Under the pieces are notes generated by a model that had not been told where the DNA came from, searched no databases, and saw only the letters and a list, made by a program, of their open reading frames with translations. Made by a program: the position numbers and the translations under genes. Below, piece by piece: positions 1,975 to 60,427 of a stretch of DNA of 64,000 nucleotides. The DNA comes from a virus, in IMG/VR virus record IMGVR_UViG_3300045988_079613. One strand, written 5' to 3'. Positions within the stretch are counted from its first letter, which is position 1; every line of letters starts with the position of its first letter.

Positions 1975-2021
1975 AGAAGAAAATAAAATAACAGTAGCTA
2001 CCTAGAGCATAAGCTAGGAAT

Positions 2022-2082: not shown

Positions 2083-2088
2083 TTTAAA

Positions 2089-2176: not shown

Positions 2177-2191
2177 CTAAAAATATATCAT

Positions 2192-3527: not shown

Positions 3528-3529
3528 AA

Positions 3530-4378: not shown

Positions 4379-4429
4379 TGATACTATTTTATTCAATACT
4401 TATTTATAAACTTACTAAATTCTTACAAT

Positions 4430-6824: not shown

Positions 6825-6829
6825 GAAAA

Positions 6830-6860
6830 GGGCTGTTGTGAAACAGCCCTATCTTTTTAT
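6830..6860. terminator. bidirectional rho-independent terminator between convergent modules
   Basis: GGGCTGTT-GTGA-AACAGCCC (6830-6849), A-rich before and T-rich after. TAA 6822-6824 (plus gene) and TAA 6857-6859 (minus gene, if TAG is read through) flank it. Confidence 0.75.
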
Positions 6861-7456: not shown

Positions 7457-7522
7457 TAACCATCTCTCTTGTAAAACAACCGGTAAATATTGTCTGTGCA
7501 TCATAACAAACTATCCTGCCCA

Positions 7523-10500: not shown

Positions 10501-11278
10501 TATATATTAATTGACTTACTATCTCATCTACTATATCATTATAGAAACCAAAGAAGTTCTGATCTAGATCATTCAACTTAGTATCATCTATGTCCAGTCC
10601 TTTTCTACGGACATTAACGAGATATTCGAAGGTAGGTCGCAATTCAAATCTTAAATTAGCTAAAAATTCATTAATGTTATCTAAATCTGATTTAAGACCT
10701 TCACTAATATTTGCAATTAGCCATTCTGATTCTTTTTTTATCTTAGTTCTAAGTTCTGCGTCAGGATTAGTATTTACTTTTAATCTTGACTATAAACCTT
10801 TCAGTATCTTTACATTTATGTCTCTTAAAATACTATCTAGTTCTTCCTTTTCTTTAGAATTATAATTATCTTTTGTCTATTCTAATCCTATTTCTAAGTC
10901 ATTGTAAGCCTAATCAACGCGTTCTCTTAAGTCTTTATCTGTGTCAAAAAAAGACTTAGCTTCTTCACTTAAAGAATCTTGTGATTGATACTCTAACACC
11001 TACTAAGCAGTTGGTTCTATAGTTAAATCTTTATAAGTATTCTTAAAACCAATTAAAAAAACTTTAGATTTTTCCCTGATAGCCATTTTAGAATCATTGT
11101 TAAAATGACTTAAAAGATCCTAATATAACTTAGAATCTTTACCTTCACTATCAAACTCTAAGCCATAACCATTATTTTCAGATAAGACATAATAGGCAGC
11201 ATCATAGCTACCTAATATGTCAGTATACTCTTTTAACTATGCCTTTATTTCAGGCAATTCTGTTCTTAAACACGTCAT
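7523..11278 (-). CDS. large virion-associated protein (about 1,251 aa with TAG read as sense)
   Basis: Nine track ORF fragments (7631..10642) share one phase. Every gap was hand-translated: only TAG interrupts. ATG 11278 overlaps the upstream TGA (ATGA). Confidence 0.6.
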
Positions 11279-20200: not shown

Positions 20201-23200
20201 TTTACTGGAACAATACCATTTTGAGGATTAATTGGTAAAGTCACTTCAGCATTACTAAAATAATTAGGAGCGTATTTTCTTATATATTTACCAATTATCT
20301 CTCTTCTAAGTTCTCGTAATTTACGTACTTCCTCATTTTGTTTATCTGTAGGAACACCCCATTTTCTTACCTTAGTTCTAGCTTTATCTGGAGTATACAA
20401 TGCAGCATTATAGATATATTTTTTTCCATCTATATCTTCTTCAATTATCATATGTACAGCAAGTCTATCTGCTGCATCTTTTTCTAACTTTCTAGTTTCT
20501 TTAGAATCTGTGACTATATAGTATACTTTCTATTTAGATAACCAACCTGGTATAGCTAACTTTTTAGACAATTCAGAACCAGGCATTCTAGTTCCATTGA
20601 ATTTGACATCTACAGATTTACCTTTTACTTGGGTCTATATAGGCATTACTTCTGTATTATCATACGCAAAGAAGAATGTAGAATGGATTCTATTAGTCTC
20701 TACTTTTTTCTTACTGTCTAAACCAGGACTTTTATCACTTTGACCCAATAGTTCTGCAGCTCTAGTAGTAGCTGCCAGATCTACAGAGTCTAGTTCTTCC
20801 ATAGCATTTTGTAAGGCTAGTTGACTATCTTCTATATGAGTTCCTAGAGATGGGTCTTCATTACCTACCCATACATCAGTTCCATCAGAATACACCATAT
20901 TTGATGGTTCTTCTATTGTAATAGTTACATCCTATGTATTAGAACCATCAAATGATTCTGCTGTAACAATTACCTTAGTAGGTTCATCAGGCTATTTTGC
21001 AGTGGCTACCTCTATAGGCTAATCTGTTTTCTCTTCTTTATCTTGTTCTTCTACAGTAGGTTGCGGGGATTCATCGGCAACAGTAGATTCAATAACCTAT
21101 TGTGGGGTTTGATCCTATGTATCAGGTTCTATACCATCTTCTACAGCGATAGGTTGCCCATCCTCTACTTGCTCTAGTTTTGCTCTTATTGCATCTTCTT
21201 GTAGTACATCATCTGATACTCTATCTAATTCAGATGCTTCTACAGGAGTATCAGTTTCTACTCTATCCTCTGGAAGTATTCCTGTACTATCTTCCATCAA
21301 TATCTTGTTAGGATCCTATTCTAAAGTATCCTCTAATATTCTATCTATATCCTCCTATGTAGATAACTATACCTCATCTACTGGCGGTTGTTCTTGAGTA
21401 GAAGAGTCTACAGAATCTACAGGGGCTTGAGCAGTTGTTCTGTTCTATTCTGTATGTTCTGTAGTAACATTTACTTCATCTGGAGTATCGCTTTTTTCTC
21501 TATTTACTTGAGGTTTTATTTCAGGTTGGTCTATTATTTTTTCTTGAGTATCGGATTGCTCTTTATCATTAGCTAATTGCTCTGAAGTTTGTTCTCCATC
21601 GTTTTCAGCAGCTCTGTGTCCAGTCTCCTGTTCAATTTCAGTTTTAGCCTATGTTTCTTCTTGAACATCTCTTCTATTATTACTTAAAAATAAAGAATTG
21701 GCTAGAAATCTTTCAGTCTACTCTACATTAGCATCATTCTCCAAAGCACTCCATTGGTCTTGAATAGTTTTATTATAGTAGGCTATTACTTGTTTCCTAG
21801 TCGGCTCTTCATCTGTACTATACTGTTGTTTATATTTCTCAGAGTATTTCTATAGTACATTCTATTTATCTTCATCTGATAAATTGGAATATATAGGTTT
21901 ACTTTCTACTAAATATCTATCCTTTGTAGATAGTCTACCTGTAGTATAAGCATTAAGCTATGCATTTAAACTGCTAAGAATACCAGTATTTAATGCATTT
22001 ATAGCCATTTCTTGTTCTAATTCCTGTTTATTTCCGAAATCTGGAGCCTTAGACATTATATGGTCGATCCACTTATCTTTCTATCTTAAACTATTTTGTT
22101 CTCCTTGTAGATCTTTTAGTGAATCGTTTATGTACTTTAACATACCCTCTACACCAGTAATAGATACCTATATTCCATATTCGTCCTTTAACTATTCCAA
22201 AGTCTTCTTTCTAGATGTAAGATCTCTTTTCAGATTAGTAAGAGTGTTTGTCAAGGTTCTAGAACTAACAGCGTTTACTATTGATGATTTAAATTGCTGC
22301 TTTGTTATTGGTTCTGCATTCTATTTTCTTTGTGCGTTAGCATAAGCTTCATATTCTGAATTTATAAATGAATTAAAATCATTTACATCTTCATTATTTA
22401 TTATAGAGTTATTAATGTCACTTATACGTTTATCACTTTCGTTTTTAGCACTTGAAGCATCCTTCTATTTATCATAAAGGCTTACAGTAGTCTATACAAA
22501 TCTCTCAAAAAATTTATCTTTTTTACGATCTACACCTATATCTTTTAGATTCTGATCAATAAGCTTATTTCTATAAATAGCAGATACATCTTTTGCAAGA
22601 CGTATATCATCATCAATCATATCATCTGTAACACCTTCTGTTTTATACTTTTTGAAATCTTCTAAACTAGTAGTGAGGCTGTTGATATCTCTACCTTTTC
22701 TAGAGTAATCCAGAAATTGAGCTATTTTAAAGTTATTTTCAGCATTTTCAAACCCCTTAGCAGCTAATGCTTTTACTACATTGTCTCCTTGTAATTGATG
22801 TCTGATATCGTTGATATTTGTTAGATTTGCTCCACTTCCCATAAGAGCTCCGATAAATCCTCCAATACCCATTTCTATCTTTAATTGTTCATCGGTGTTA
22901 TATTTATCGTCCCAGTGCATACCTCTATATGCTAAATTAGCTTCTAAAGCTAATCTACCAGCTGTGGCGGCACCTCTAAATATATTATATGTATCTGGTA
23001 CCTATGCATTATCAGGAAGATCCTAATACCATCTTCCTATCATTCCTTGCTATCCTTCTTCAGTACTTTCAAACAACCATCTCTTACCTAAAGCTAATGC
23101 CATGTCTGTTCCAGCATCTCTAACATGTTTAGCCTTCATTCTAGTCACAGGACTTTTCATAAGTTTAACTGCGGCTTTATCTATCTTTGAATTAAGTTTA

Positions 23201-24738
23201 GATAAAAGAGCAGCAGTTGTCTTGTTTTTGGTAGCTAAATCTACAGCCTTGTTCATTATAGCTTTGAAACCTATAGATTTATTCAACAGCTTACCACCAT
23301 AACTTAAACCTAAGTTTTCAGCATAATCACCTAGAGCTAAAGCGTTATTAGTTTCTTCTATCTGTGTTAAACCTTTGCGAGCATCCTTGGCAAAAGTATT
23401 GTAGTTATTATCTTTAGTAGGTATATTATATGCCAAACCAAACTACAATGTTTCCATTTCATCCATTTTATCAGCATCGTAACCCATGGCTTTCAAACCA
23501 GCAGCATAGTCATTCAATACTGTAGATAAATCAAATTTACCATCTGCAGCAGCATTAGCTAATTTTTCAACATAATTAGACATTACTTCTCCTGCAGTTT
23601 CTTTATGTCTAAAATATCGTGTAAATAAAGAGTTGACAACAGCTTCCCCAGCAGCCCAAGCCAAAGGACCACCACCTAATTTGGTACCATATTTCACACC
23701 AAGTGCGGTAAGCATTTGCCATCCCATTCCCTATAATTCTGATGCACTACTACCTATATGCAACATACCATACTTCCAAGTAGTTGGATCTAAAGCAGAT
23801 ATCTAAACTTCTCCACGTTTCTTATCAAGAATAGGATCAATTACTTCAGGATTGTAAAATATTGGCATCGGAACAATTCCAAATAGAGGATCATGTAACC
23901 AATGCGCTGTCTTTAAACTCTATTGTTTCTATTTTAATTCATCATCTTTACTATCATATTCTAACTTAGCATCAGATAATTGCTTTTGTAAATTAGCAGC
24001 TTTTATATCTAACTAGCTAACTGTAGTTGGAAATGTATTAGTAAAATCGGGGTTATTCTATTTCCAAGATAAATCAGCATAGTAAGGAGATAATCTTCCT
24101 TCCGCTAGTTGATTCCTTACTGTAGAAGCTTCTATTGTTCTACTTGGTAACAAAGGGTTTACAGACTCTGTTACAGCTCCATAAAATACATTACTTAGAT
24201 AAGGATTGGTCTTAGCTTTCTATTTTATATCTTCTTGTAATTTCAACAACTCTTCAAGTTTCTGTTGTGAGGCTTGAATGAGATCTGTATTCTATGGGTT
24301 AGCTTTTAATTGATTTTGGAGTTGGATATATTCTTTCTAACCCTATATATAATTCTGCGCTTCTTCAATCTCTGGTAACCATTTACCTTCAGTATCCATT
24401 AGTTCTTTCTGTCTAGAAGTAATGTTCAAAGATAAAGCGTCTCTAGTATTTATATTAACTGCCTATTCAGCAAATGTAGTAGTTTTTCCAGATTCTGTAG
24501 TAGGCTCAAATAGTTTCTTACCACCAATAACTACAGAAGAAGCTATAGGATTTAGCAAAAATGCAGATACTTTGTTTATAATACCTAGACTAGTTTCTTG
24601 TTTATCTTCAGAAATGTTAGATTCCTGTTCCTATATAGGAGTGGCATATTCATCATCTATACGTCCGTAATAACCTGTACCGAACTAACTATCATTAGTT
24701 CTATTTATTACTGATAAAAAATCGTCAGAAAATTTCAT
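11275..24738 (-). CDS. giant multidomain virion protein containing a crAss-type virion RNA polymerase domain (4,487 codons)
   Basis: The listed ORF fragments between 11677 and 23727 share one phase. All gaps were hand-translated: about 78 in-frame TAGs and no TAA/TGA from ATG 24738 to TGA 11275-11277. GSDFDIDKLY (DFDID at 14050-14064) matches the DxDxD metal-binding signature of crAss-like virion RNAPs (phi14:2 gp66 type). HEAFH at 18616-18630. Acidic low-complexity linker at about 20900-21700. Confidence 0.75.
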
Positions 24739-24749
24739 AAGTTATTATA

Positions 24750-26423
24750 TTAAAGGTTTTCTTCCTAAGATAACATATCTTGTATATCTTGTGTTTTTGT
24801 TTGTATTCCAAGATTCTTGTCCATCCAAGCTGCATCAGAAGTTATGGCAGCTTCTCCACTTCTAGGTAATTGCTGTAGTACAGTAATTCTGATAGTTTTT
24901 ACAGGAGTACTTGAAGATGTGGTAGTACTCTCCAAATTTCCTCTATTGTCATATCTTTCTGTAGTTTTAGGACCTGCATCCACAGTTACTGGAGTACCCA
25001 AAGCTGATAATGATTTTCTATCTATTCTGGCTTTTAGTAATTGATCTTCTGGAATGTATGCATGTTTTACTATATATATATCATTACCATCAGATATCAT
25101 TCTCTGGTCAGAAGATATTTTAAAGTTAGAGAAATTATTTCCATCATTCCACAGACTAATAAACTTCTATAATCCTTTGTCAGCATCTTTTCCAATTGTA
25201 TTATATACTAATTCTTTGGCTAACTTGAAATTTGAACTATTATTTGCTGTGTAGAAACCATCTTTATCCTATTTTCCTGTAGTACCATAGGCTGCATACT
25301 TATCAGAAGCTTCATAGCTTATAGGAGTAGACATAAGATCAATTACAGCATTTTCTGCAGTACTTCTCCTTCTTGTATCTTTCAGTACCTGATCGTAGTA
25401 ATTTTTCATTTTACTTTCTACATAACCTGGATTCTTAAGATTAAGAACCTCCTGTTGCTTTTCAGGAGAAAGGGCTTTAAAACCTTGTTCTGCAAATGCA
25501 TCCACTTCCTATGGAGTAAGGTTGGTAAACCTAAGTAAGTGATTCCTGGTAGCATCTGATTCTAGTACTCTGGTAAGATTGAGTAAATTATTGGCAGTAT
25601 TAGCAGCAGACGCATATTTGCGTTGTAACCTCATATTTTCTATAGCTACAGGATCTCTGTCTGCTTTATTCCATGTATACTCTCTACCTGCAGTATATAT
25701 CTCATTAAGTAATTGTTGTTGAGCCTGTTCAGGATTAAGCCCCATTTTCTAATATGTTTCTAGATATTTCTGGTACTGAGGAGTATTCTGTATACTTGAC
25801 AAATTTTTCTATAGTTGAGCATCTGTCATTTCATTAGTAACACCATTCCATAGAAATCCATTCTTAGAACCAAGAAATTCGCCTTTAAGGTTATTAACAT
25901 AAGGCTCTACTAATTCCCTTACAGACATATAAGGAAGAGGAGTTATATCATCAAATATTTTCTTACTACCTAACGTATCATAATTAGCAAAGTCTACGTC
26001 ATGCCATAGGGGGTTAAACCTATTCTCTAACATTAATCTTTGATTAATTTCTTGACGTTTTAGCATAGCATCTCTACTAGATTTTAGATTACTTAACGCT
26101 GCGTAATCTACACTGTTTATCATAGACTGTAATTGTGATCTAAATGCGGCATCTTTCAATGCATCAGGATTAGATACCATCTGATTAATAGCATTCTAGA
26201 AATCATTTCTACCTACAGTAAGATCATAATATCTCTGGGTATCTATTAGAGAAGGAGACTAAAATTCATTAAATCTCTACAGTTGAGCTCCAAACTATTG
26301 AGCTGCTTCATCTATAGCAGCTTTCTAGGCTGCCCCAATTCTATATAACTCTCCAAAATTAATCGGAGCATAAGTATTTATAAACTGAGCCTACGCGGCT
26401 TGATCGTACATATTTGCTGCCAT
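24750..26423 (-). CDS. hypothetical virion protein (about 557 aa)
   Basis: Four same-phase fragments joined by TAG only. ATG 26423 lies 1 nt after the upstream TAA (26425-26427). Ends ...DMLS-TAG-EENL-TAA. Confidence 0.55.
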
Positions 26424-35704: not shown

Positions 35705-35737
35705 CTTAAAATAAAAAAGGCTAGTATTAACTAGCCT
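35705..35737 (-). terminator. rho-independent terminator
   Basis: On the minus strand: AGGCTAGT-TAAT-ACTAGCCT followed by TTTTTTATTTT. The hairpin contains the stop codon of the upstream gene. Confidence 0.7.
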
Positions 35738-36293
35738 CATTCATTGCTTTTTGCATATTCTATGGTAACATCTATTTCATCTAAGGTGGAACCATATTTC
35801 CTGCTTGTTTTATCAAATTCTTAAGTTCACCTACCTGATCTTGTAGTTCCTTTATTCTAGGATCTTCTTTATCAGGTTCTTTGTCATTATAATCTAACTA
35901 CTTTAATATTGATTCACATTTTGCCATTTCTTCGTCATACTTTGCCATTGCTTCTTTTTTAGCTTTACACTCATCGTAGTTAGCTTTAACCATATTAATT
36001 ATTTGTTGTTTATCAGTTGCTACTGTTAAACCTATTGAACCATCTGTTACTATTGACTTGTTATCTTCTACAGATAACTTCTTTGATTCTCCATCACAGC
36101 TGATTACTATGTCTACTAACTTCTTTCTAGTCTAGTTAGGCATAGGAAACTACTATGGTGGTAATGGTTCATCATATACTTTGGACACATTGGTAACCAT
36201 TCCTTTATAGTATGTAGTACTCTTCTTAAAAGTACCAACTACTTCAAGTACATGGATAGGTTCTCCAATGTTTAATTGTGAAAATGTAATCAT
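35727..36293 (-). CDS. hypothetical protein (188 aa, 7 TAGs, Gln-context tail)
   Basis: Hand-translated. TAGs fall in PLPP-TAG-TAG-FPMPN and MVPP-TAG-MK-TAG-MLP-TAG-NMQKAM, which read naturally as Gln-rich. Confidence 0.5.
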
Positions 36294-36336: not shown

Positions 36337-36780
36337 TTAAGCTGCAGGAGCTGCAGTTGGTGTTACAATGTGGTTGACTACTTGGAATATTCCATTACAC
36401 TTATTATAGTATACGAAATATTTATTTCCAACTGTAACCTCTTGATTAACCATCTGTTCTCCAGAACCGTTTATTAACTATTTTCCACCAGCAGAAATGT
36501 TACTTGAAGTATTAGCATTAGAACTAGTATGAGTAGGATCTATTAAGATAGGAGCTTCTGCAGGAGTACCAGCAGCTGGAGCATGCTGTACATTCAAAAG
36601 TAATATACCTTCATTTGGTAATTGCCTCCATTGATATGGACACAAACCGTAAGTAACCTGGTTGGCTTCAGTATCTGTAGTCACGTAAATTGTACGTGCT
36701 ACAGGTATACCGGCTCTATCTAATCTCTATACATTATTTCTACGGGGAAATCCGTAACCGAAATTATAGAAAGGATACAT
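36337..36780 (-). CDS. hypothetical protein (147 aa, 2 TAGs)
   Basis: ATG 36780 is preceded by AGGAGG (36786-36791). The track fragment 36478..36684 is extended on both sides through TAG. Confidence 0.55.
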
Positions 36781-36796
36781 AATTACCTCCTTTCTA

Positions 36797-37645
36797 TTAG
36801 CAACCACATCCATCGTTGTATCCGAATGCTCCATACGCGCCATAGCAGCAGTTAGGATTCGGAACTACGTATGCAGGAGTAGGACACGGAGTCTTTAATT
36901 GAGAAACAATATTAGCTGTCTGAGCTTGAGTAAGGGCTGCTGCTTCTAGAGCTGCTTTTTCACTACGCAATGTATCAATCTTGCTTTGCATTTCACGCAT
37001 TTCAAGCTGACAGAATTTATCGTTGATTATTTGAGTTTGAGCGTCTATTTTAGCACCCAAAATATTAAATTGAGTATTAGCGTTGCTAGTCAGAGTATTC
37101 GTCTGGTTTACTATAGCTAACTGACTTTCATAACCCTGAGTAGTTATAGCATTACGAATATCGCAGCAGCAAGAAGCCAACTGAGATGCAAGGCTTGCAT
37201 TACCGCTCTGGATAGCGTTGATTACTTGTGCACCTGTCAATTTAGTATCACAAGCGATCTGGCTAACACTAGTATTAATAGTGTTCAGTGCATTCTGTAC
37301 TGCATTAATATCACAATTCAAAGTATTAGACAAAGTAGCGATAGCTTCTTTGTTACCATTGATTGCTTGCATTAGCAGATTAGTGTTGGCATCAGTATTT
37401 AATTGAGAAGCAAGCTGTGAAGCTTCACCGCTTCTGTTACCGAAGCCATTACCACCCCAACCGCCCCAAACAAAGAACAGTAAGATGATCCAGATCCACC
37501 AACAACCGTTGCCACCGAAACCTCCATTGTTATTCATCATAGCCATGAGAGCTGCAGGGTCCATACTTTTATTACCATTCTGCATTAATGCAGCTAGACC
37601 AGCGTCAAAACCACGGTCTTGAACAATAATTTTATCTTCTAACAT
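36797..37645 (-). CDS. membrane-anchored coiled-coil protein with Cys-rich C-terminus (282 aa, TAG-free)
   Basis: Hydrophobic segment CWWIWIILLFFVWGGWGG, a long N/Q/A/T heptad-like region, and a C-terminal NPNCCYGAYGAFGYNDGCGC. Confidence 0.65.
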   Translation of the reverse strand: MLEDKIIVQDRGFDAGLAALMQNGNKSMDPAALMAMMNNNGGFGGNGCWWIWIILLFFVWGGWGGNGFGNRSGEASQLASQLNTDANTNLLMQAINGNKEAIATLSNTLNCDINAVQNALNTINTSVSQIACDTKLTGAQVINAIQSGNASLASQLASCCCDIRNAITTQGYESQLAIVNQTNTLTSNANTQFNILGAKIDAQTQIINDKFCQLEMREMQSKIDTLRSEKAALEAAALTQAQTANIVSQLKTPCPTPAYVVPNPNCCYGAYGAFGYNDGCGC

Positions 37646-37677
37646 AATTGATTTTATTTAGGATTGATTTAATTTGA

Positions 37678-38280
37678 TTAATATCTAATGTAGCGCACAG
37701 AACGACCACGTTTGAATTCTTCTTCCATAGGAAAGGATTTTTCTCTTTCTCTCTCCTTCTCAAAGTCTCTTTCATCGTATTCTCTGTCGTATTCTCTACG
37801 TCTACCATATGAAGATCTACCCATTCTACGGTAGTTTCCATAACGTTCCTCTTCGTCATCATCTTCGTACTTGCTGTAATGTCTTTCATAAAGATCTTCT
37901 TCAGCGTTTCTAATCTTATCACACATGACATAAATATAGTAGAACCACATCTTACCTTCATCTATATCTTTGTCACAGATCCAAGCTTTAGCTAATTCTA
38001 CGAAGAACTTCGTATTGTTAGTGCCGGTAATGTTAACAATGACACGATAGTAATCAGAGTATACCATATTCAATGCAACGTACCAATCATATTTGTTTAT
38101 CTTTTCATCTAAACGAATACCATATTGATTAGCTAATGCTGTAGTTTCTTCTAATGACCAATGTTGACCTCTTGTTCCGTCTTCATTTTCCATTTTATTT
38201 ACAGCTTTACGAGCATGTTCTTCATTGAAATGAGGACCGTGTTCAGCTTCATAAGCTTTTGTACGGATTATTCTATGCAT
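37678..38280 (-). CDS. hypothetical protein with R/E/D/Y-rich charged tail (200 aa, TAG-free)
   Basis: Uninterrupted ORF ending in TAA. C-terminal YGNYRRMGRSSYGRRREYDREYDERDFEKEREREK. Confidence 0.6.
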   Translation of the reverse strand: MHRIIRTKAYEAEHGPHFNEEHARKAVNKMENEDGTRGQHWSLEETTALANQYGIRLDEKINKYDWYVALNMVYSDYYRVIVNITGTNNTKFFVELAKAWICDKDIDEGKMWFYYIYVMCDKIRNAEEDLYERHYSKYEDDDEEERYGNYRRMGRSSYGRRREYDREYDERDFEKEREREKSFPMEEEFKRGRSVRYIRY

Positions 38281-38315
38281 ATTATTATTGATTAATTTAT
38301 GTTTATAATAATAGT

Positions 38316-38954
38316 TTATTTGATTTCTATTATTCTGGTATCAGTTACTTTGATAAGTTTATTGGAATTATCTATAGTAAATTTGCGAATTTTATCTTTT
38401 TTAAAGTCAAAGTGAAAGAACCTGGACAGCCACGATTTGTACTAATTACGATACACTTTTTTTTCTTCTATGAACAATGTCTAAGCATTCTTCAAATCTA
38501 ATGTGACTGATAAGATTGAATCTTTTCTACTTACTATGATTGTCGTTAATTTATTGAGTTTTAACTTCTTACTAAAATCTGATTCTTTTGTTTGGATTAC
38601 TGTTTTGATTGAATCCTTTACTTCTGTATTGATTACTTGAGCTTGTACCAGGTTCTTATCTTTAACTTTTAATTTCTTTTTGGTTTCATTAAGCTATTCA
38701 ATTATACTGTCTTTACTACATTTTAACTAATCTATAGTAAGCTATAATGTTCTATTAGCCTAATCTTTCTTGTCAAATAGAGATTCATAGTAACTAGTAT
38801 TATTAACTAGCCTAGCTATCTCTGCATCCTTTTTTTTCAGTTGGTTGTACATAAAAAAAGCACTTACCGTTAGAATACATATGAAACTTATGGTAAGTGC
38901 TTTGAAATTTCCTTTCAACCAATTAACTACTGTGAGTATTGCTGTTATTATCAT
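38316..38954 (-). CDS. N-terminal TM plus coiled-coil protein (i-spanin-like candidate, about 212 aa)
   Basis: TM segment ALTISFICILTVSAFFMY followed by charged helical sequence. Overlaps the end of the holin-like gene by 32 nt. Extended through 6 TAGs to TAA 38316-38318. Confidence 0.4.
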
Positions 38955-39456
38955 TATTGGTATTTTTTAAATCATTAATGTCAATATCTACTCCGAGATA
39001 TTTCTCACCTTTAGATTTGATAACCTTTCCTAAAACTTTTTCTATTACTTTACAAATCTTGCAATCTGGATGTAAATCTTTCATAGATTCAAGCCAAGAT
39101 ATAAACTCTGTTCCACATATCATACCAGATATAAACTCTACAGCATGCAAATCTATAGAAGTAACTATACTAGTATCTATTACATGTGCTCCTGCTATCA
39201 ACAGTACAGCCTCAAATAACTTATTTATAGTCTTCCATAATTTGTAGTACTCTATCTACTTATGACCATACTTACGAGAAACTTTATAACCAAGAATTAC
39301 ATCTACAATGATAAATAAACATACGCAAACAACAGTTACTGAAATTGGTGTAAAGTAGCTAGTGATTCCCGCTAGTATTCCAGCAGATGTTTTTTGTGCA
39401 CTGCTGAACATACTTTTTAATAGTGTCATAACCGGATCTCCTATATTGTGAATCAT
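38923..39456 (-). CDS. holin-like small membrane protein (177 aa, 1 TAG)
   Basis: Track fragments 39256..39456 and 38923..39201 are in the same phase and joined by one TAG. Hydrophobic segments GILAGITSYFTPISVTVVCVCLFIIVDVILG and LLIAGAHVI. The call rests on these segments and on adjacency to a TM/coiled-coil gene. Confidence 0.4.
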
Positions 39457-39467
39457 AGCAAGTGTTT

Positions 39468-39506
39468 TGAAAAGTAAAACCCTAGCTGATAATTAGTCTG
39501 CCAGGG
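39468..39506 (-). terminator. terminator-like hairpin after the RT gene
   Basis: Minus strand CCCTGG-(15 nt)-CTAGGG followed by TTTTACTTTT. The loop region carries a direct repeat TTATCAGC x2. Confidence 0.45.
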
Positions 39507-39569
39507 CTGATAATATTGTTTTGATATACTTATAAAACGTATATATTTATATATAGTTTCTTAGTCTAA

Positions 39570-40577
39570 TTATTCTTTAATATATTCTAATAGCTCTTTA
39601 TATTTAGACATTTTATTTAATAAGTTACGTCCATTACAGTATTTAATCCAACCTATATAGCTACATATTTTTTGCTTATACGTATCTTTATCTAGGTTCT
39701 ATTTTTTATTTAACTTGTTTATCTTTTTGCAGAATCTCTTTTTTATACGCTTTCTTAATAACGTATGAGTATGAAATACTCTATATCCTACAAAATCTAT
39801 ACCTCTCGAATCTACCTTAAATATCTACCAATTATCTTTAAAGTTTAACTTTAATTTATTATTAAGATAATCCTGTATGTTATAGAATAAATCTCGTAAC
39901 TACTACTTATCTCCACCTAATATTACAATATCATCTGCATATCTAAAGTAGTATCTAACTTTCTTTTGTTCTTTAATCCAGTGATCTAAATAAGTAAGAT
40001 ATAAATTAGCAAAGAACTAGGATAAGTAATTACCAATAGGTACTCCCTAAGCTGATTCTATTATTTCATCTAACAGACTTAATAGTCTTTTGTCTTTTAT
40101 TTTTTTCCTTATTATTGTTTTTAATATATCATGATCTATAGAAGAATAGAACTTTCTGATATCTAACTTTAAACAGTATTGCGTATTTATTTCATCCTTT
40201 AAAGCAAATTTAACATCTTTCAAAGCTTTGTGTATACCGCGCTTTCTAATGCAACTATAAGTTCCTTTTATAAATGCAGATACCCATATAGGCTCCATTA
40301 TATTCATAATTGCGTGATGTACAATTCTATCAGGATAGTATGGTAGCTTAAATATTTCTCTTTCTTTTGGTTCATATATTTTGAAAACATAATATTCGGA
40401 AGTTTCGTATTCCCCATTTATTAGTTTTCTTTGTAGATCTAGAAGTAACTTGTCTTTGTTCTTATCAAATAACATTACTTCAGGTCTATGTGATTTCTAT
40501 CTTCTAGCTTTTTTATCAGCCTCATATAAGTTATCTAAACTTACTATTTTATCAAATAAATTATTGTATCTTTTCAT
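39570..40577 (-). CDS. DGR-type reverse transcriptase (335 aa, 6 in-frame TAGs)
   Basis: MKRYNNLFDKIVSLDNLYEA opening. PKEREIFKLPYYPDRIVHHAIMNIMEPIW (motifs 1-2). LKLDIRKFYSSIDHD (motif 3). GVPIGNYLS-TAG-FFANLYL (motif 4, (I/L)GxxxSQ). RYADDIVILG (YxDD). Fully hand-translated from ATG 40577 to TAA 39570-39572. Confidence 0.85.
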
Positions 40578-40704
40578 CTGAAATCCTATTTCGAGTTTTC
40601 ACAAAGTTACTAACACGAAGATTTTAATTAGTCATTTTTTACCTAGTGGTAAAGTCTCCTCTAACAGTTTTTTCATCTTATTATTCAGATGTGTTTTGTT
40701 AAGG

Positions 40705-40802
40705 TTTCAGTGTACTGACATTGGCATTAGCATTGCTAAGTGTATTGTTAGAATTCAAATTGAGCAAACTGGAATTCGTACTATTACTAGTGTTACTGCT
40801 TA
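40705..40802 (-). repeat. DGR template repeat (TR)
   Basis: 98-nt match to 40849-40946 at an offset of 144. In the VR frame it reads AGC AGT AAC ACT AGT AAT AGT ACG AAT ..., which is rich in AAY/AGY codons. Confidence 0.8.
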
Positions 40803-40820
40803 ATGACAGAGGACAACTTT

Positions 40821-40848
40821 ATCTATATTTAAATTACGGTATATAGAT
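40821..40848. repeat. 8-bp inverted repeat abutting the 3' end of VR and enclosing the target stop codon
   Basis: ATCTATAT (40821-40828) and ATATAGAT (40841-40848) with a 12-nt loop containing TAA 40834-40836. Confidence 0.5.
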
Positions 40849-42075
40849 CAACCGAGTACCGACATAGGCACTAGCATTGCCAAGCGTATCGCGAGAACCC
40901 AAACCGAGCCAACCGGAATACGCACTATAACTAGCGCCACCGCCTACAATTAAGGTTCTATTTGAAGTGCTATTATTGGTATAATTATAATCACACCAGT
41001 ATGTAGTAGCACTTCCTCCATATGCCTCATCAATTGGTGGAAACAAATCAAATGATTCATTATAAATGAGTCTCTTCTTATAACCATCAGTAGTTACAGT
41101 ACTACATTGTAAGTTATAATCTGAAATGTTAGTCGAACCAAATTTACTTACATCGGTAGTAACATAAACGTCATTTTTCGTAGAAGTTGCATTATAATGT
41201 ATAAGTGTGTCTATACAATTTTTCCATACGTGACCGAATGGATTCTCTATTCCTCTGTAAGTAGGAACACTGTAAGTCTTCTGAGTAACAACTCCCTCTG
41301 CATCACTGCTATCAACAGTAACTGAAGTAATTCCTGTAGAATTACCGTGTTCATCAGTACTACCACAGGGTATGAAATTATATTTAGCTACTCCGTTCAC
41401 TTGTATACTACCAGTAGTAACACCATCTCCTAGACCTCCCTGATGATAACCTTCTGCAGTTAATTCAGCATTAAATGCTTTTTGAGAATTAGTACAAGCA
41501 TATTCTACTAAATATAGTATAGTAAGTACCTTGTGTGCATTATAAGTATATATATTCCAATTAGTACTACCGGCCTTATTAGCCCTAGCTCTTTGTTGCA
41601 TTGTGGTTCTTGCAATATTAACTGAAGGAGTAATATTATCACCTTTAATAGACTTATATACATCTTCAACATTAGATGCTTCGTATGCTGAAATATAGAA
41701 CTTCTCTACATGCTCTACTCCAGGTATCATGGGATCTGCAGGATACAAATTTAGATATACGGTATTGTCATCCTTCATACACTTATACCAAAACTCAGGT
41801 ATTTCTACCATAGTATTTAAAGTCATATCTCTATCAGAACCATCTTCATATTTAGTTCTATCGTCTGCTTTAAGATATTTAACCACACCATCAGCAGTAA
41901 GTGTACATGATTTCATTTTAGATTGAATCGGTAATTCTTTATGCCAAGGCATATAACCAATTCTAGTCAAAGTAGTACTTTGAGGTTCTATAGGGAAACT
42001 AACCCCATAATAATTAGTAAATACGTTAGCGTTTCCTAAACGGACAGCTACAATATTTTTATCTCCAAGTTCCAT
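40834..42075 (-). CDS. DGR target protein, tail-associated receptor-binding candidate (413 aa, TAG-free)
   Basis: Uninterrupted ORF. The C-terminal ...IVGGGASYSAYSGWLGLGSRDTLGNASAYVGTRLIYIP is encoded by VR and resembles C-type-lectin-fold DGR variable regions. ATG lies 2 nt after the TAA of a small fibre-like gene. Confidence 0.75.
   Translation of the reverse strand: MELGDKNIVAVRLGNANVFTNYYGVSFPIEPQSTTLTRIGYMPWHKELPIQSKMKSCTLTADGVVKYLKADDRTKYEDGSDRDMTLNTMVEIPEFWYKCMKDDNTVYLNLYPADPMIPGVEHVEKFYISAYEASNVEDVYKSIKGDNITPSVNIARTTMQQRARANKAGSTNWNIYTYNAHKVLTILYLVEYACTNSQKAFNAELTAEGYHQGGLGDGVTTGSIQVNGVAKYNFIPCGSTDEHGNSTGITSVTVDSSDAEGVVTQKTYSVPTYRGIENPFGHVWKNCIDTLIHYNATSTKNDVYVTTDVSKFGSTNISDYNLQCSTVTTDGYKKRLIYNESFDLFPPIDEAYGGSATTYWCDYNYTNNSTSNRTLIVGGGASYSAYSGWLGLGSRDTLGNASAYVGTRLIYIP
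40849..40946 (-). repeat. DGR variable repeat (VR)
   Basis: 27 differences from TR. 25 are at positions where the TR coding strand is A (25 of 37 TR adenines changed, against 2 of 61 other positions). Confidence 0.8.
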
Positions 42076-42077
42076 AA

Positions 42078-42584
42078 TTATTCGTAAATTAAGTATAATG
42101 TTTTAGAATTTTTATTAGGTAATGCGTTATATTCTGCTTGAGTCATAGTAACTATGTTGTTAACAACCTCTGATGATATACAATTAGTTAAATCTACAGT
42201 TTCTGATAATTTATCCCATTCTGCTGGATCAGCATTAATGCATACATAATTAGCTCCTGTATCATCCACGTTGTACACATCTCCGACTACAGATACCTCA
42301 GGTAAAGAATCAAAGTCTGCTACAGTACCTTTTACTCTATATACAGATGCTACCTTAGCGTCTACCTATTCCTTATTATAGGTATCAGACTTATCTGCTT
42401 TGTTATCAATCTTCTCTTCTAGTTGTTCTATTACTTCTGTATCTCCACTGATAGGAGCCCAACCAGAATTCTTATAAACTTTAATTACAGCACCTGTTGG
42501 ATCTTCTTTTAGATCAATCCAGTAATTTACTTCCTTAGGATCTGGAGCTGTAACACTGGCTTTAAAATTTATGTTTTCTTTCAT
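42078..42584 (-). CDS. small tail-fibre-like protein (168 aa, 1 TAG)
   Basis: Fragments 42366..42584 and 42078..42278 are in the same phase. Confidence 0.5.
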
Positions 42585-42593
42585 TGTTATATG

Positions 42594-43148
42594 TTATTTA
42601 CTTAAGTTTATAATTAACTTATCTGGATATCCAACAGTATAGTCATAATTGTTAATTTGTTCTTTACTGTTTAGTTTTTTAATGTTGGCTATATGTTGTT
42701 GAGTAGTATTATAACATTCAGATGCGTATAACTCTATATTATCCATTATACTGTCAAATTGGTTTAATGGTATGATAGTCTTATTATTATTGTACCATAC
42801 GGTTATATCTGCTTCTCCATTAGCTTTTTTGATATTGGCTAATTCTCTTATAGATAATCTCTCCGTTTTATTAAGCCAAATGGAAGCTCCGTCAATAATT
42901 ACAGAATTAACAATATCTGATTTATCATACCGCTCTATATTCTATATAGTTATCTTCTTTACTTCGTCTATAGTAGCTACGTAATCTACAGCTATAGGAT
43001 ACCCATTCTCATCTTCAGATATTAATTTACCTTGAGATTGAGCAAATAATAATTCCTACCAATATTCTTCTGTTATTTCTACCCCTCCGTCTACCGGTTC
43101 ACAATAAAACCCTTGTTTCCAATATATTCTATTACTTATATTCTTCAT
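42594..43148 (-). CDS. DUF4376-like tail-fibre-associated protein (184 aa)
   Basis: Hand-translated. C-terminal ELYASECYNTTQQHIANIKKLNSKEQINNYDYTVGYPDKL resembles the DUF4376 consensus (from memory). Confidence 0.45.
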
Positions 43149-43149
43149 A

Positions 43150-46100
43150 TTATCTTTTCCATTTACCTATTGCTATATAACTTACTGGTTGTGTAGTATA
43201 TGCTGCCGAAGTACTCATATCAGCTTCTGTCGCTCTATATGTGAAACCAGCCGCGTAAACCTATGTAACTACTGCACTATACATATTACGATAAGTATTA
43301 TTATTGGTTTTGAATGAGACCATTACAGTCCATGGAACAGCGTAAAAACCAATAGGAAACGTTACAGTTCTTAACTCTGTAGAAGCACTAGGTGTATGTG
43401 TACCCCAGCATATCTATAGTCCGTTTATAAATCTCTAATATCCATCAGTATTAAATCTACTGCTTTCGTTCCAATTTTTCATACTAACAACAGCCTGATC
43501 GTTAGTAGTAAATGTGCCACTATCGTAGTCTTCAACATTAAATACTTCAGATATACAATTTCCTTGATCGTCTATAATGGAAGCATATACTGCAACCCCA
43601 TTAGACAAACCTCCGCTGTCTAAATCAGAGTTTGCTATAACCATTGGAAATGTACCGTAGTCACCTTGAGGGTTACCATAATATAAGAATTGATACTCGT
43701 TTAAATCTACATCATTATTTATTTTTTTTAGTATAGCAACATCTGCACTATTGAGAGTGACATAAGTACTTCTATCTGTCTTAAATAAATCATTAGTAGT
43801 AAATATTGCTACTTTACTATTAGCAGGTTCACCTTGAGGTCCTTGTGGTCCAACATCACCTTTATCTCCTTTATCACCTTTGTCCCCCTTCGGCCCAGTA
43901 GGACCAGTGTCTCCTTTGTTTCCTTTCGGACCCTATTTTCCTTGCAATCCTGTATGACCTTGAGGTATACCAAATCTGAATGTTCTGGCACTAGCTGTAC
44001 CACCCATTGTTACTGTTGCTTCTGAAGTATAAGGTAGAGTAACAGCAGATACCTCTGTAATAGTTGCTGCAGTACCGGTATCACCTTTAGGTCCCTGAGC
44101 CCCTGTATCACCCTTGGGTCCAGCTTCACCTCTAGAAGGTTTACCGGTATTAGTATCTCCTAAATACCAGTTACCATTGGAACCAATAGTTGGTGTTATA
44201 CCGTTCTCACCTGGATCCCCTTTATCTCCCTTAGGCCCCGATGCAGATGCTGGTATGTTAATTGTTTTAGCTGCAGATCCATCCCAAGTTCCTGTTACAG
44301 CTCCAGTAAATGTCAATGCATATGGAGTTGGCAGTTTATCCGCTGTAGTAGCTATTTTCTTCCAAGTGTTCCATCCGGCATCATTTATCGCGTCTCTGAA
44401 AAATAGATGATCTCTGTCCCCATGTGATAAAGCTAATTGCAACGTAAAATTGCCTGTATTGCCAGGTAATATAGAAGACGAACTAGCTATTTGTACTATT
44501 TCTCCATATAGTCCACTAATTGGAATAGTACCTTCATTATCTGGAGCATATGCTCCAAAGAACGAACCAGTCACTTGATCTATATTATTAACATTTAGCA
44601 ATCTAGTAAAATCAGTAACTGATTTAGTAGTTCCGTTACCAAGCAACATATGAGAACCATCTGAACCAGATACTACATAACCGGTTGCCCATAATCTAGA
44701 TGAAGAGTCTCTCTATGCTACAGAATTAGCAACAGAAGATGAGGAGAATGTAGGTTTATTAGCTATATTACCCCAAGTTAAATCATTGTAATAGGCTAAA
44801 GCTTTCCATTCTGCATCTGCCAATGTTCTAGTAGTCCCATTGAAATCACTTCTAACATACATTCTTACTACCCTTATAGTACTCTATCTTAGATCTGGAA
44901 TATAAAACTAAGTGATACTAGTACCGCTAGTAAAACTTAAGAACTACCCATAATCATATGATCCGGTTCCTAAATCATCTGCATTAGTATATCCTATAGC
45001 TTCTATGTAACACGTATCAGCGTAATTTTTACTTACTGGACCAACGCTCTTAGCATACTTATTAGAATCCTTACCATCAAGCAATTGAGCATTAAGATTA
45101 GTAACCAAATTAGTATTAGTCATAGTACCACCAGATAAACTAAGTTTACCAGATAATCCACTATTCAATTCTGTCTTAGTAGCTAACGCACTAGTATCGG
45201 GTATAGTAGGTTTATTAGTTAGATCATTATAGTTACCAGAGAATTCAATAATCTCAGACCATGCAGCATTTCTTCTACCATATTTTTTATTATCCTTTGG
45301 TGCTTCACCTACTTCTCCAGCTCCTGCTGTAATTTCAATATTACCTGCTCCAACTAAAGATTCCCCATTAACCGTCTTTATGTTAGTACCACTTACCAGG
45401 GTGTTTTGTTTCTACGAATCTAGTGCGTATATTTGACCTACTAGGTTATTCTCTACCTCTGTAGCTCTAGCAGTTTCTGCTTCTATTGATCCTATCAACT
45501 GCTAATTAGATTCTTCAAACTCTGATCTAACAGAATTAATAGCTGCAGCTACACCTGTTAATTTTACACCATTAGGGCCTACTGTCAAATATGAATCTGA
45601 TGTAGAGTCTATAACTACATTAAATTTATTAGACGCAGCAAGTTGTAACCCATTTCCAGCAGTATATACATCTACTAAATCACCTATGTTAACCCTTACT
45701 ATAGAATCTCCATCTTCTGCTACAAAAGTGAATACTAAACTAGTAGTATCTGCATCATATACAACTCCTTTAAGAAATCTATCTTTAGGTATACTAATTT
45801 CTCCAGCATTAATAGAATCTACCATTAATGTGTAATGCAAACTATTCTACTAATCCTAGATCAATTCTACTGATGCTACTTTACTATTTTGGAGATTAGT
45901 TATTAAAGTGTCTTGTGCGTCATTACGATTCTTCTCAGTAGTAATTTTATTAGTATTAGCATTTTCTGCATTAGTAGCTCTGGTAATTTCATCAGTAATT
46001 CTTTGTCCTAAAGCATTATCTGCGGCTTTGTATGCAGTCTCAACTTCATCTATTCTATCAGAAAGACCACTATCACTACCAATTGATTCTTTCAATTCTG

Positions 46101-48091: not shown

Positions 48092-49906
48092 TTATACTTG
48101 CTCCCAAGTAACACTCCCATCCTCGTTGAAGATAATTCTCTTACCTGCTATCTCAACTACTGTATGAGAAGATGAACCTATTATGATCTGATTACTATCG
48201 GATGCTTTAACATTGTACCCTATAACAATAGAATTTTCTATCACTGCCGGAGTGCTCTTAGAATGCAGTTTAGCTAAATGTCCTATACAGATATTATTCT
48301 TACCGTCGACATCATAATTGTTCATTGCATCCATTCCTATAGCAACATTTCCTTCACCTTCTATATACAATGCAGCATTAGCCCCGACAGCAACACATTT
48401 AGTGTTATTACGCACACCAGCAGATGCCCCGACAGCAACACATTTTGATTTAGCAAAATGTGCAGAACCACCACTTAATGTTCTATGCCCTATAGCTACG
48501 TTATCGACGAAATCATTGCTATTTGTCTGCCCTAACGCATTTGTCCCAATTGCGACATTGCGTTCTCCTTGCCCTCTAACCTCTCCCAATGCAGCCTTAC
48601 CTATTGCTACATTATCCTCTCCTTTTGGTATATACCACGCCGCATCAGAACCTATTGCTATATTTCTATCTCCCTCAATTAGGCGCGTTAGGGGGAATGT
48701 TCCTATACCGATATTCCTTGCTCCATATTTTAAGGAGCTTAACGATCTCTGACCTATTGCAATGTTGCGGGATCCATTCTGGTTCTTTGCAAGGGCATCG
48801 GTTGCACCTATTGCAATGTTCCACCAGCCTGTAATGTTATCTGTCATTGTGCCTCCTTCAACATTTTCGTAGTGCTTATTACTATCAGAATCAAGTTCTA
48901 CCTCTATTGATGCCTCATCCTCAGAAACAATTTTACGAAGTTCCACTCCATACACACTTCCATCATATGCTGATGATGCGGTAATTTTAAGACTACCACC
49001 GTCCGATATCATACCAACATAGAATTTACCTAACGTTCCATTATAGATATCACATAATCCCCCCTCACCGATACTAACACAAACATCCTTTTCGTATGTG
49101 CCGACTTTAGAATAATTGAATATTGCTACATATTTTTCACCCTCAATAGTAGCATGATCAAAAATAAGAGTATCTGTATTGCCTATAGCATGCGTATAAA
49201 CCCCTTCTGTGTATTGCCAGTTATCTCCATTGCCAACAATTGAACTGATAAGGTTATCGCCAAGATATAATTTTTTACTTACTTTTCTACGAATGCAAGT
49301 TTTAATATCTTCGGATTGAATATCTTCGTCAAGAGTCACAATCCCATCTGGTCCAACTCTGAGAAATTTCCCTGCGTTGTTTATTCCTTGCTGTTTATCA
49401 ACCTTGCCATTTATTAATCCAGATTCTGATTTGTATTCAATATTGGTAGGTTCATAGCTTACTCCAGATGAATTAGCGCAATAGACATATAGGTAATTAC
49501 AATCAGAAGGTAATACTATCTCAAATGGAAAGTAGTGAGTCTCAATGCTTGTATATCCGTCACAAGCATTAACAATTGAACCGGATACGAAATCGCAATC
49601 TTTTACAGGCAACACGGAGGCTCCATGAGCCGTATCTATCGGTGTAATCATCAGATTTCTTCCCGCCACAACAGGGATAACCTTGTGCTTTGTCAATCCA
49701 TAATTTCCATTAGTTCTGAAAACTAAATCACTACTTGTAATTAATCCACTCCGATAATCATACAAATTCAAGTCGATTGCTTGGGCTTCAATACCAGTAA
49801 TTTTATCTACCTTTGAAAATATTTCCTCAAAGTTCCCATCAATCGCAGCAGCTAAAGTACCCCATGATTTTTCAGAGTCTTTTGCTATATCAAATATCTT
49901 TTCCAT
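48092..49906 (-). CDS. tailspike/fibre with degenerate NIAIG-type repeats (604 aa, TAG-free)
   Basis: Uninterrupted ORF. C-terminal array of (R/D)N(I/V)AIG repeats reminiscent of YadA-head/trimeric-adhesin repeats. Visibly higher GC than its neighbours. Confidence 0.7.
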   Translation of the reverse strand: MEKIFDIAKDSEKSWGTLAAAIDGNFEEIFSKVDKITGIEAQAIDLNLYDYRSGLITSSDLVFRTNGNYGLTKHKVIPVVAGRNLMITPIDTAHGASVLPVKDCDFVSGSIVNACDGYTSIETHYFPFEIVLPSDCNYLYVYCANSSGVSYEPTNIEYKSESGLINGKVDKQQGINNAGKFLRVGPDGIVTLDEDIQSEDIKTCIRRKVSKKLYLGDNLISSIVGNGDNWQYTEGVYTHAIGNTDTLIFDHATIEGEKYVAIFNYSKVGTYEKDVCVSIGEGGLCDIYNGTLGKFYVGMISDGGSLKITASSAYDGSVYGVELRKIVSEDEASIEVELDSDSNKHYENVEGGTMTDNITGWWNIAIGATDALAKNQNGSRNIAIGQRSLSSLKYGARNIGIGTFPLTRLIEGDRNIAIGSDAAWYIPKGEDNVAIGKAALGEVRGQGERNVAIGTNALGQTNSNDFVDNVAIGHRTLSGGSAHFAKSKCVAVGASAGVRNNTKCVAVGANAALYIEGEGNVAIGMDAMNNYDVDGKNNICIGHLAKLHSKSTPAVIENSIVIGYNVKASDSNQIIIGSSSHTVVEIAGKRIIFNEDGSVTWEQV

Positions 49907-57991: not shown

Positions 57992-58963
57992 TTAGGCAGC
58001 AATGAAGTTTTCGATACCTTTTGCTACAATAGAAGAAGCAAAACCAGTTGAATGCTTAACATACAGTTCAGTAGTAAGCGGAGTGGTTTTGATGTATTGA
58101 TTATCATTACTCAGATACTTATTATCGTTTTCTACAGTAATATAATCGTAAGTAGCATCTTGCTCTACCATTCTATCTTGTACTACTTCAGGATAAGCTC
58201 CAGTAAATACATGACCTTGGTAGCCCATATAACGTACTTCAGCGTCACGTACTTGTTTCCAGTAACCTTTACCAGGATTACCAGGAGTTTTAACAATAGT
58301 AGCACCAGGGATAGCGTCAGGCTGATTACTCAAAATAGCACCAGGAATAGTAACATACAGACTAGCTTCCATATCTACTACAGAATATTCATTCAATGAA
58401 TATACACCGTTATTGTCATCTTTTTCCATTGCAGTTAAAGTGATAACTGCAGCAGATGCAGACGCATTAACTCTACGGTTAGCATGTTTGTTAATCTTTT
58501 TAACGATAGCAGCAGCTAAGTCAGCAGCAGTAGTGTTAGCAGCAAATACTTCGTATGTGTGCGTAAACTGACCCGGAGCTTCATACATGTCTTTATATAC
58601 TATTCTTAGTACATATCTATGACCTGCAATGATAGTAGCATTAGTAAGAGTAATAACGATCTTGTTCTGAGCTGGAGCTACATATTCTCCAATAACTGCA
58701 CTTGGATTGGAATTCTTCTGAATTTCATTACCAAATTTAATATTAGCCTTATCAGCTACCTTACCATCAGGCATAGTAACTTTTACTTTATTCTGAGCTA
58801 CACCTATATACAAAGAAGTAGCCTTAGCTGCATCAGTAGCAGTTTTGATAATAGCTCTATTCTGGTCAAACAGAGCAACATCACCCGCAGAAAGTGCATC
58901 AGCAGTAGTATAAGCTGACGGAAGATTTTTACCGATCAAAACGGTATTTACGTGTTGAATCAT
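57992..58963 (-). CDS. abundant virion structural protein candidate (323 aa, TAG-free)
   Basis: Uninterrupted, Ala/Thr/Val-rich, higher GC. It has its own upstream intergenic region and a strong terminator. Confidence 0.65.
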   Translation of the reverse strand: MIQHVNTVLIGKNLPSAYTTADALSAGDVALFDQNRAIIKTATDAAKATSLYIGVAQNKVKVTMPDGKVADKANIKFGNEIQKNSNPSAVIGEYVAPAQNKIVITLTNATIIAGHRYVLRIVYKDMYEAPGQFTHTYEVFAANTTAADLAAAIVKKINKHANRRVNASASAAVITLTAMEKDDNNGVYSLNEYSVVDMEASLYVTIPGAILSNQPDAIPGATIVKTPGNPGKGYWKQVRDAEVRYMGYQGHVFTGAYPEVVQDRMVEQDATYDYITVENDNKYLSNDNQYIKTTPLTTELYVKHSTGFASSIVAKGIENFIAA

Positions 58964-59728: not shown

Positions 59729-60427
59729 TTATTCAGATAATTGGTTTAACTGTAATTTACTAGAGGTTCTTTGAGATTCAATATTTTCTAATGCTAACAC
59801 TACAGCTCTATTTATTACTTCTGACATTACATCATCCGGTAAATCTAATTCACCGTCTAGATTAGTATAGTCAAATTGAGTAGGTTTCTTTATATAAGTA
59901 ATATTTATTGCATACTTATTATTAGATGGAGCGTATTCGGTTTGTTGCATCAATATTGGATCAACGTACAGTAACATTTTATTATCCTCTAATACTACCA
60001 CAGGTACCTCTACCCAAGGTATATTGTTATACGTCTGTTTGAATAACATTGCAGTATTATGATCAACAATCATGCAGTTAGCAAAATTATTACCATACTT
60101 TAGTGTTACTGCCCATATTGTTACTCTATTCCCATCATCATGCACATTATCTAATACAAATTCATTATATGCATTCTTCTACATTATTAGATTTTCATCT
60201 GTACGTATGAGCTTATCTAATTCAGATATTCTCTATAATGATCCTTCAAAACCTAACTTTAGTATATTGTTACCACTTATTTTGTTGCTTATTACATCAT
60301 CCTAAGCCTAGTTAAGAAATAAATCTATCTCCTAAGGTAGGAATGCAGGAGCTCCCCCAAAGGCAACTCCCTAAGCATTCTTATCTAGGATAACTTTAAA
60401 CTAAATATGTGCAGTACGGTTATTCAT
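59729..60427 (-). CDS. head-tail adaptor-like protein (232 aa, 7 TAGs)
   Basis: Hand-translated. EIDLFLN-TAG-A-TAG-DDV and FEGSL-TAG-RISELDKL read as FLNQAQ and SLQR, resembling adaptor/neck protein motifs (from memory). ATG shares a base with the upstream TAA (TAATG). Confidence 0.4.

Follow-up and report, generated by a model that had tools for sequence, protein, structure and literature searches.

The late minus-strand genes of a gut phage, among them the gene for the reverse transcriptase (RT) of a diversity-generating retroelement (DGR), almost certainly use genetic code 15, in which UAG would be read as glutamine by a phage CUA tRNA and the RT would be full length and working. The stretch of DNA analyzed here, called the window below, comprises the 64,000 nucleotides of IMG/VR record IMGVR_UViG_3300045988_079613, about two thirds of a genome; its sequence identifies it as a human-gut crAss-like phage (Crassvirales, Suoliviridae) near Buchavirus cr56_1. 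The TAG-to-Gln inference, which a preliminary description of the window had drawn from an RT motif, is correct but already known: the reassignment has been published, confirmed by proteomics and used in the annotation of a RefSeq genome 93 to 96% identical to the window. Code 15 in crAss-like phages (Crassvirales delta group, Suoliviridae) was described by Yutin et al. 2021, by Borges et al. in a 2021 preprint and by Peters et al. 2022. The first of these reported 243 crAss-like phages with TAG-to-Gln or TGA-to-Trp reassignments, mostly in late genes, together with suppressor tRNAs (PMC7886860), and the last showed by LC-MS/MS that Gln is placed at TAG in two crAss-like phages (PMC9523058).

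The RT gene of the DGR occupies positions 39570 to 40577 of the minus strand. In the translation and stop map it opens with MKRYNNLFDK, runs for 335 codons to a TAA stop (39570-39572) and contains no in-frame TAA or TGA, together with seven in-frame TAGs (codons 27, 177, 187, 225, 226, 251 and 293; the preliminary description had counted six), which amount to 7 of its 12 Gln codons. The peptide GVPIGNYLS-TAG-FFANLYLTYLD, quoted in that description, is indeed present in the minus-strand translation, but its TAG had been placed at 40047-40049, which is off by 30 nt, or 10 codons. The triplet there is codon 177, in the context ESA-TAG-GVPIG, a variable column just before GVPIG and outside the SQ motif; the TAG of the motif is codon 187, at 40017-40019, the last position of the motif-4 signature I-G-N-Y-L-S-(TAG) (minus strand, 40017-40037), which fits [I/V/L]GxxxSQ. 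Among the other minus-strand TAGs, codon 27 (40497-40499) would, as a stop, leave a product of only 26 residues; codons 225 and 226 (39900-39905) are adjacent, in GGDK-TAG-TAG-LRDLF, and both fall in variable columns; codon 251 (39825-39827), in NW-TAG-IFKV, falls in a second conserved Gln column of the RT family; and codon 293 (39699-39701) lies in a poorly conserved C-terminal stretch. From the base composition of the gene (43% A, 31% T), the probability of 335 codons free of TAA and TGA is about 9e-13. The same composition predicts 7.2 TAGs, against the 7 observed; TAG is therefore present at its compositional expectation while the other two stops are absent, and is not avoided.

Several lines of sequence comparison place this protein in the DGR clade of RTs. 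It matches the Pfam RVT_1 model at 3e-16, and in a sequence search against solved structures its top match is the Bordetella phage bRT (8ub7_A, E=1.8e-53, residues 2-324), with the best group II intron RT at 4.6e-20 and the best retron-type-named chain at 2.1e-19. The segment IGNYLS-TAG-FFAN aligns on IGSLTSQLFAN of bRT, which also has Q at the position of codon 251; the two RT alignments shown after that of bRT carry GNLSPLLAN at this site, and the aligned group II intron and retron-type chains have SP opposite the S-TAG of the window. The YADD catalytic motif is likewise present. The published signature of DGR RTs is [I/V/L]GxxxSQ (PMC3521204; PMC7826257), as against QGxxxSP elsewhere, and it assigns the window RT to the DGR clade only if TAG is Gln. 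The preliminary description had treated this Gln as invariant; it is a useful marker, but it is kept in about 90% of DGRs family-wide (PMC3521204) and in 136 of 150 representatives here. In bRT the last residue of the SQ motif is Gln187, and the Q187P substitution leaves the frequency of adenine misincorporation unchanged (PMC7826257); hence, the SQ Gln is better regarded as a family signature than as a proven essential residue.

The preliminary description had proposed that the residue conserved at each TAG column of an RT alignment would reveal the identity of the codon. Our homologue search used the database protein P0001, which already carries Q at the TAG positions, and this circularity was controlled by checks at the codon level; indeed, the best 120 word-index homologues listed are all 95 to 98% identical and pre-translated with Q, and are hence uninformative on the residue. 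Because database proteins of recoded phages may be pre-translated in this way, codons were read directly from two sets of genes. One comprises 78 standard-code RT genes without in-frame stops, 52 to 62% identical to the window RT and taken from GTDB genome contigs, mostly of Bacteroidota; the other comprises 70 distinct genes for phage RTs, taken from IMG/VR contigs, 61 to 97% identical, nearly all with 3 to 9 TAGs. The genome scan for RT relatives used an 8-sequence alignment. At the protein level, 150 cluster representatives at 37 to 66% identity were compared.

Only two columns are Gln-dominant among the 150 representatives, those of codon 187 (Q in 136) and codon 251 (Q in 98), and the window has TAG at each; 7 codons drawn at random would include the two with a probability of 3.8e-4. 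In the 78 standard-code genes codon 187 is CAA in 46 and CAG in 32, and codon 251 is CAA in 42 and CAG in 36, which makes Gln 78/78 at either site. Among the 70 phage relatives, column 187 reads TAG in 42, CAA in 25 and CAG in 3, and column 251 reads TAG in 26, CAG in 24 and CAA in 20, with nothing else at either. The converse is seen at Gln columns 49 and 302, which are CAA in the window and TAG in many phage relatives. The alignment thus bears out the proposed Gln, and the TAG columns are not mostly Trp, Leu or gaps. The remaining five columns are uninformative and speak neither for nor against Gln, as they vary or, where Gly is conserved, show this in distant relatives alone: codon 27 is occupied by Gly in 76 of 78 bacterial relatives and by N, Q or H in the phage clade (AAT 37, CAA 19, TAG 8); codon 177 is GAA (30), TAG (27), GAT (5) or CAA (5) in phage relatives, D, P or E in bacterial ones and E, D, P, K or Q overall; the column of codon 225 holds E, K or D, that of codon 226 Y, E or F, and that of codon 293 mostly gaps or K. 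Since five of the seven TAG columns are not Gln columns, and codon 27 is Gly in bacteria, the RT by itself gives only a modest margin for Gln. Elsewhere in the alignment, column 310 is TAG in one of the 70 phage relatives and the Trp codon TGG in all others, a single G-to-A difference that is either a sequencing error or a tolerated W-to-Q change. Recoded RT genes of the crAss-like type, with 6 to 7 TAGs, are also present on the GTDB contigs CAJMAC010000001.1 and CALEBD010000320.1. These contigs are assigned to 'uncultured Clostridiales' and 'Clostridium' MAGs, probably through mis-binning of phage DNA with bacterial genomes.

The identity of TAG across the window was examined with cr1_1 and cr50_1, standard-code members of the same family in which 4559- and 4775-aa ORFs are intact. 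Twenty-six window proteins, with X at TAG, were aligned to these two, which placed 174 TAG sites in 17 genes. The commonest residue opposite TAG is Q, in 53 of 244 cases overall and in 30 of 75 in well-aligned contexts. A likelihood ranking over the 174 sites, with substitution frequencies drawn from these alignments, places Gln first as the identity of TAG, followed by Arg (-74 ln units), Lys (-84), Glu (-85), Tyr (-244) and Trp (-321). Further, P(Q|TAG) is 0.195 against 0.215 for P(Q|CAA/CAG), the values for the other tabulated residues (K, E, R, N, D, S, T, L and W) being at most 0.052. Comparison with the close relative cr56_1 leads to the same residue: where segments are at least 85% identical, 97 of the 108 window TAGs also read TAG in cr56_1, and 9 of the other 11 correspond to CAG or CAA; conversely, 3 of 4 cr56_1 TAGs lie opposite Gln in the window; and 12 of the 15 TAG-involving substitutions between the two are TAG<->CAG/CAA. 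The two contexts that had been offered as independent support, PPXMKXMLPXNMQKAM (35727-36293) and FLNXAXDD (59729-60427), were found as quoted.

Readthrough of TAG extends the longest ORF of the window from 608 to 4488 aa and brings the ORFs to a combined 26749 aa, up from 15420, and a tightly packed minus-strand gene array emerges at 6857-63748. All 261 in-frame TAGs lie in minus-strand genes of this array, 260 of them within the recoded late-gene block (minus strand, 6857-60427), which the per-gene codon table shows to be interrupted by several TAG-free genes. Late-block Gln-type codons number 261 TAG, 391 CAA and 139 CAG, TAG being 33% of them, and one ORF of 4487 codons holds 78 TAGs. The late genes all terminate in TAA or TGA and none in TAG. 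The eight plus-strand replication genes analyzed (32-6824) have no in-frame TAG, and the pattern in cr56_1 is alike. These early genes are also unusually poor in Gln codons, CAA and CAG making up 0.6 to 3.0% of their codons as compared with 4.3% in the late block counting TAG. In the early primase gene (from 2192), a TAG at 3170-3172 is followed after 7 codons by TAA (3170-3193), and the cr56_1 ortholog stops with TGA; no other site in the window offers a plausible TAG stop. TAG-free or TAG-poor late genes are found at 48092-49906 (604 aa) and 57992-58963 (323 aa), and the major head protein gene (62279-63748) has 1 TAG in 489 codons. We considered the TAG-free late genes as counter-evidence to genome-wide recoding and rejected this, since a homing endonuclease and an inserted block are among them and recoding is gene specific in the published cases too.

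The RefSeq genome NC_055890.1 (crAssphage cr56_1, Buchavirus faecalis) is 93 to 96% identical to the window at the nucleotide level over 1-6.3, 26-48 and 50-64 kb. At 6.3-26 kb lies a giant-gene module that matches cr60_1, at about 82% identity, in place of cr56_1; by alignment, the genome is a mosaic of this cr60_1-like module and a cr56_1-like remainder. The giant genes of the module (6300-26000) encode 1473, 4487 and 557 aa and are 'nuclear pore complex protein-like' in the annotation of relatives; the preliminary description had named the module an RNAP core. The 557-aa protein is 90% identical to its cr60_1 counterpart and only 39% to that of cr56_1. As in the window, the late minus-strand block alone carries in-frame TAGs in cr56_1, where the RT (as a 335-aa protein), tail and virion genes are annotated full length. 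The two differ in the number of RT TAGs, 7 in the window and 5 in cr56_1, and in an extra TAG-free gene block of the window at about 36.3-38.3 kb. This block (36337-38280) lies outside the cr56_1 alignment, has a higher GC content (0.36-0.41) and looks like a recent insertion within the recoded late region. It includes a gene for a DUF7841 protein (37678-38280) and a 282-aa ORF (36797-37645) that had no Pfam match and has 21 CAA/CAG codons and no TAG (P=2e-4 at 33% TAG usage). A TAG-free GIY-YIG/NUMOD homing endonuclease gene (61184-62197) is flanked by the genes for a RecA-like protein and the major head protein; the homing-endonuclease gene found at this site in cr56_1 is shorter (224 codons against 337 in the window).

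A tRNA search of the 64-kb window returned none. The cr56_1 genome has exactly one tRNA, with anticodon CTA, annotated as tRNA-Gln and scoring 50.7 bits against Rfam tRNA. An identical 80-nt copy is found in cr109_1 and a diverged CUA version in cr6_1, and a 41-nt stretch of the cr56_1 tRNA that includes the anticodon is shared by IMG/VR contigs with RTs 89 to 97% identical to that of the window. In cr56_1 the tRNA gene immediately precedes the terminase gene and marks the transition from TAG-free to TAG-rich genes. The 12 genes transcribed ahead of it contain 2 TAGs over some 1400 codons, and those beyond it are TAG rich. The tRNA measures 80 nt in cr56_1 (92120-92199) and cr109_1, where the variable loop has a 6-nt insertion relative to the tRNA consensus, and 74 nt in cr6_1 (294-367 of its locus); both versions have U1:A72, G2:C71, G3:C70 and A73. 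We take these three base pairs to resemble those of Escherichia coli tRNA-Gln. The identity set of the E. coli GlnRS comprises G73, G10 and U38; the CUA tRNA has A73, A10 and C38, and for this reason its charging with Gln is only presumptive on sequence grounds. A pattern search with a degenerate anticodon, aimed at a suppressor paralog with a Gln anticodon, gave two loci, both irrelevant, and BLAST of the CUA tRNA against phages gave other CUA copies alone, so that its Gln ancestry is only putative.

The RT belongs to a complete cassette whose order is target gene with variable repeat (VR), template repeat (TR) and RT, directly followed by holin and lysis-regulator genes (38300-43200). All of its elements lie on the minus strand. 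The target gene (40834-42075) encodes a 413-aa tail protein and in the ORF list has no TAG; its ortholog in cr56_1 bears the annotation 'tail protein; similar to ... major tropism determinant', and a Pfam search and a PDB sequence search with the target protein gave no match. The VR (about 40849-40946) forms the 3' end of this gene. The TR (about 40705-40802) is noncoding, lies between the target gene and the RT and is AAY rich in the VR frame; there is no ORF in the VR-to-RT interval, and the TR is its sole element. TR and VR constitute a 91-nt direct repeat of 76% identity, with mismatches nearly all at TR adenines (A to N on the coding strand). At 40760-40770 the TR reads CAGTTTGCTC in the window and CAGTTTACTC in eight sister strains, an A-to-G change within the TR, beside the single non-adenine TR/VR mismatch. 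Among nine strains, namely, the window and eight relatives with essentially the same TR, 29 of 37 TR-adenine columns of the VR vary as compared with 4 of 59 others (Fisher p=3e-13), and the flanks are nearly identical. This pattern indicates that the DGR is active, the VR of the tail protein being rewritten at template adenines in the lineage of the window. Adenine-specific diversification of this kind implies that the RT is made in functional form and therefore that its TAGs are decoded.

The cassette may be compared with the DGR of BPP-1 (bRT, PDB 8ub7; Mtd). The RTs align end to end and share IGxxxSQ and YADD, and in both systems a tail or receptor-binding gene carries the VR at its 3' end, the TR lies by the RT and the TR/VR differences are adenine specific. 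Unlike the BPP-1 RT, that of the window encodes the SQ Gln and six other residues by TAG, and its cassette has the order target-TR-RT, with no Avd-like neighbor detected. The latter statement derives from a Pfam search for an Avd-type domain in 14 late-block proteins (36.3-62.2 kb), including those encoded by the flanking genes 42078-42584 and 42594-43148 but leaving out the RT-adjacent holin and lysis-regulator genes. A recognizable Avd is absent from many DGRs, and its absence does not exclude membership.

A further precedent is a 2023 preprint by Lou et al. (10.1101/2023.08.07.552389), which describes DGR RTs with multiple in-frame TAGs in recoded, persistent phages of the infant gut. There, too, a TAG-bearing RT adjoins a tail-protein target whose VR changes over time, and the RT printed there contains GVPIGNYLSQFFANLYL and shares 67.5% identity with that of the window across 320 residues. 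The phage is of a different strain or genus, and the study is not known to use the SQ motif in arguing which residue TAG encodes.

We weighed three other accounts of the in-frame TAGs. That TAG is a sense codon for another amino acid, such as Lys, Glu, Arg, Tyr, Trp, Ser, Leu or pyrrolysine, is very improbable. Single RT columns could be quoted in its favor, since TAG alternates with AAG or AAA at columns 10 and 39, with TAT or TAC at 226 and once with TGG at 310, and ARAGORN calls the CUA tRNA 'Pyl', although from the anticodon alone. Against these stand the 174 sites placed in the window, over which R, K and E fall 74 to 85, Y 244 and W 321 ln units below Q; the two strictly conserved RT columns, which are Gln in 78/78; the substitutions in close relatives, which go to CAG and CAA; and the proteomics of other crAss-like phages, which gave Gln (PMC9523058).

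If TAG were still a stop, the RT and late genes would be pseudogenes, fragments or products of assembly error, and it is true that the standard code breaks the RT into pieces of no more than 142 aa and that the window is without a suppressor tRNA. Such decay is at odds with 335 codons free of TAA and TGA (P about 9e-13), with the preservation of the same open frame with 3 to 9 TAGs in 70 distinct relatives at 61 to 97% identity, with an ORF of 4487 codons that holds 78 TAGs and with an ongoing VR diversification that needs a working RT; we regard this account as the least probable of all, its chance being close to nil. Readthrough of UAG by near-cognate host tRNAs, or context-dependent leaky termination, would dispense with a dedicated suppressor, in keeping with the lack of any tRNA in the window and with the report by Yutin et al. 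that some recoded crAss-like genomes have no detectable suppressor (PMC7886860). Inefficient readthrough, however, cannot complete genes with 20 to 78 TAGs, and a CUA tRNA is present in sister genomes with RTs 89 to 97% identical to that of the window, which leaves this account, too, with a very slim chance. Decoding of UAG as Gln by a phage CUA tRNA is the reading that we retain.

Based on this reading, we propose that the phage CUA tRNA, encoded outside the window and present in near-identical genomes, would presumably be charged by the host glutaminyl-tRNA synthetase and insert Gln at UAG, with TAA and TGA as the sole remaining stops. In the published model, the phage suppressor tRNA turns on the translation of late genes (PMC7886860; 10.1101/2021.08.26.457843); likewise, suppression here would switch on late-gene translation, presumably at a late stage, and the recoded RT would then be translated full length and rewrite the VR of the tail protein at template adenines. 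A further, rather doubtful possibility is that retrohoming of the DGR is translationally gated by the amber-suppressor tRNA, such that the tail would be diversified only late, at packaging, and the target could be decoded at all times. This may hold because the first RT TAG lies as early as codon 27 and the target is TAG free here and TAG poor in relatives: it has no TAG among its 9 Gln codons in the window and 0 to 3 TAGs in 75 relatives, and the adjacent RTs have 3 to 9.

For annotation, the lesson is that the standard bacterial code fragments the RT, tail, lysis and giant virion genes, and that the DGR would be missed. A near-invariant residue of a protein family, here the Gln of the SQ motif, offers a quick internal check on the identity of a reassigned stop. 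Biologically, the recoding itself is nothing new, as TAG-recoded DGR RTs of gut phages have been reported before. If the proposed gating of retrohoming were true, it would tie hypermutation to code switching at the level of regulation, a coupling not explicitly described before.
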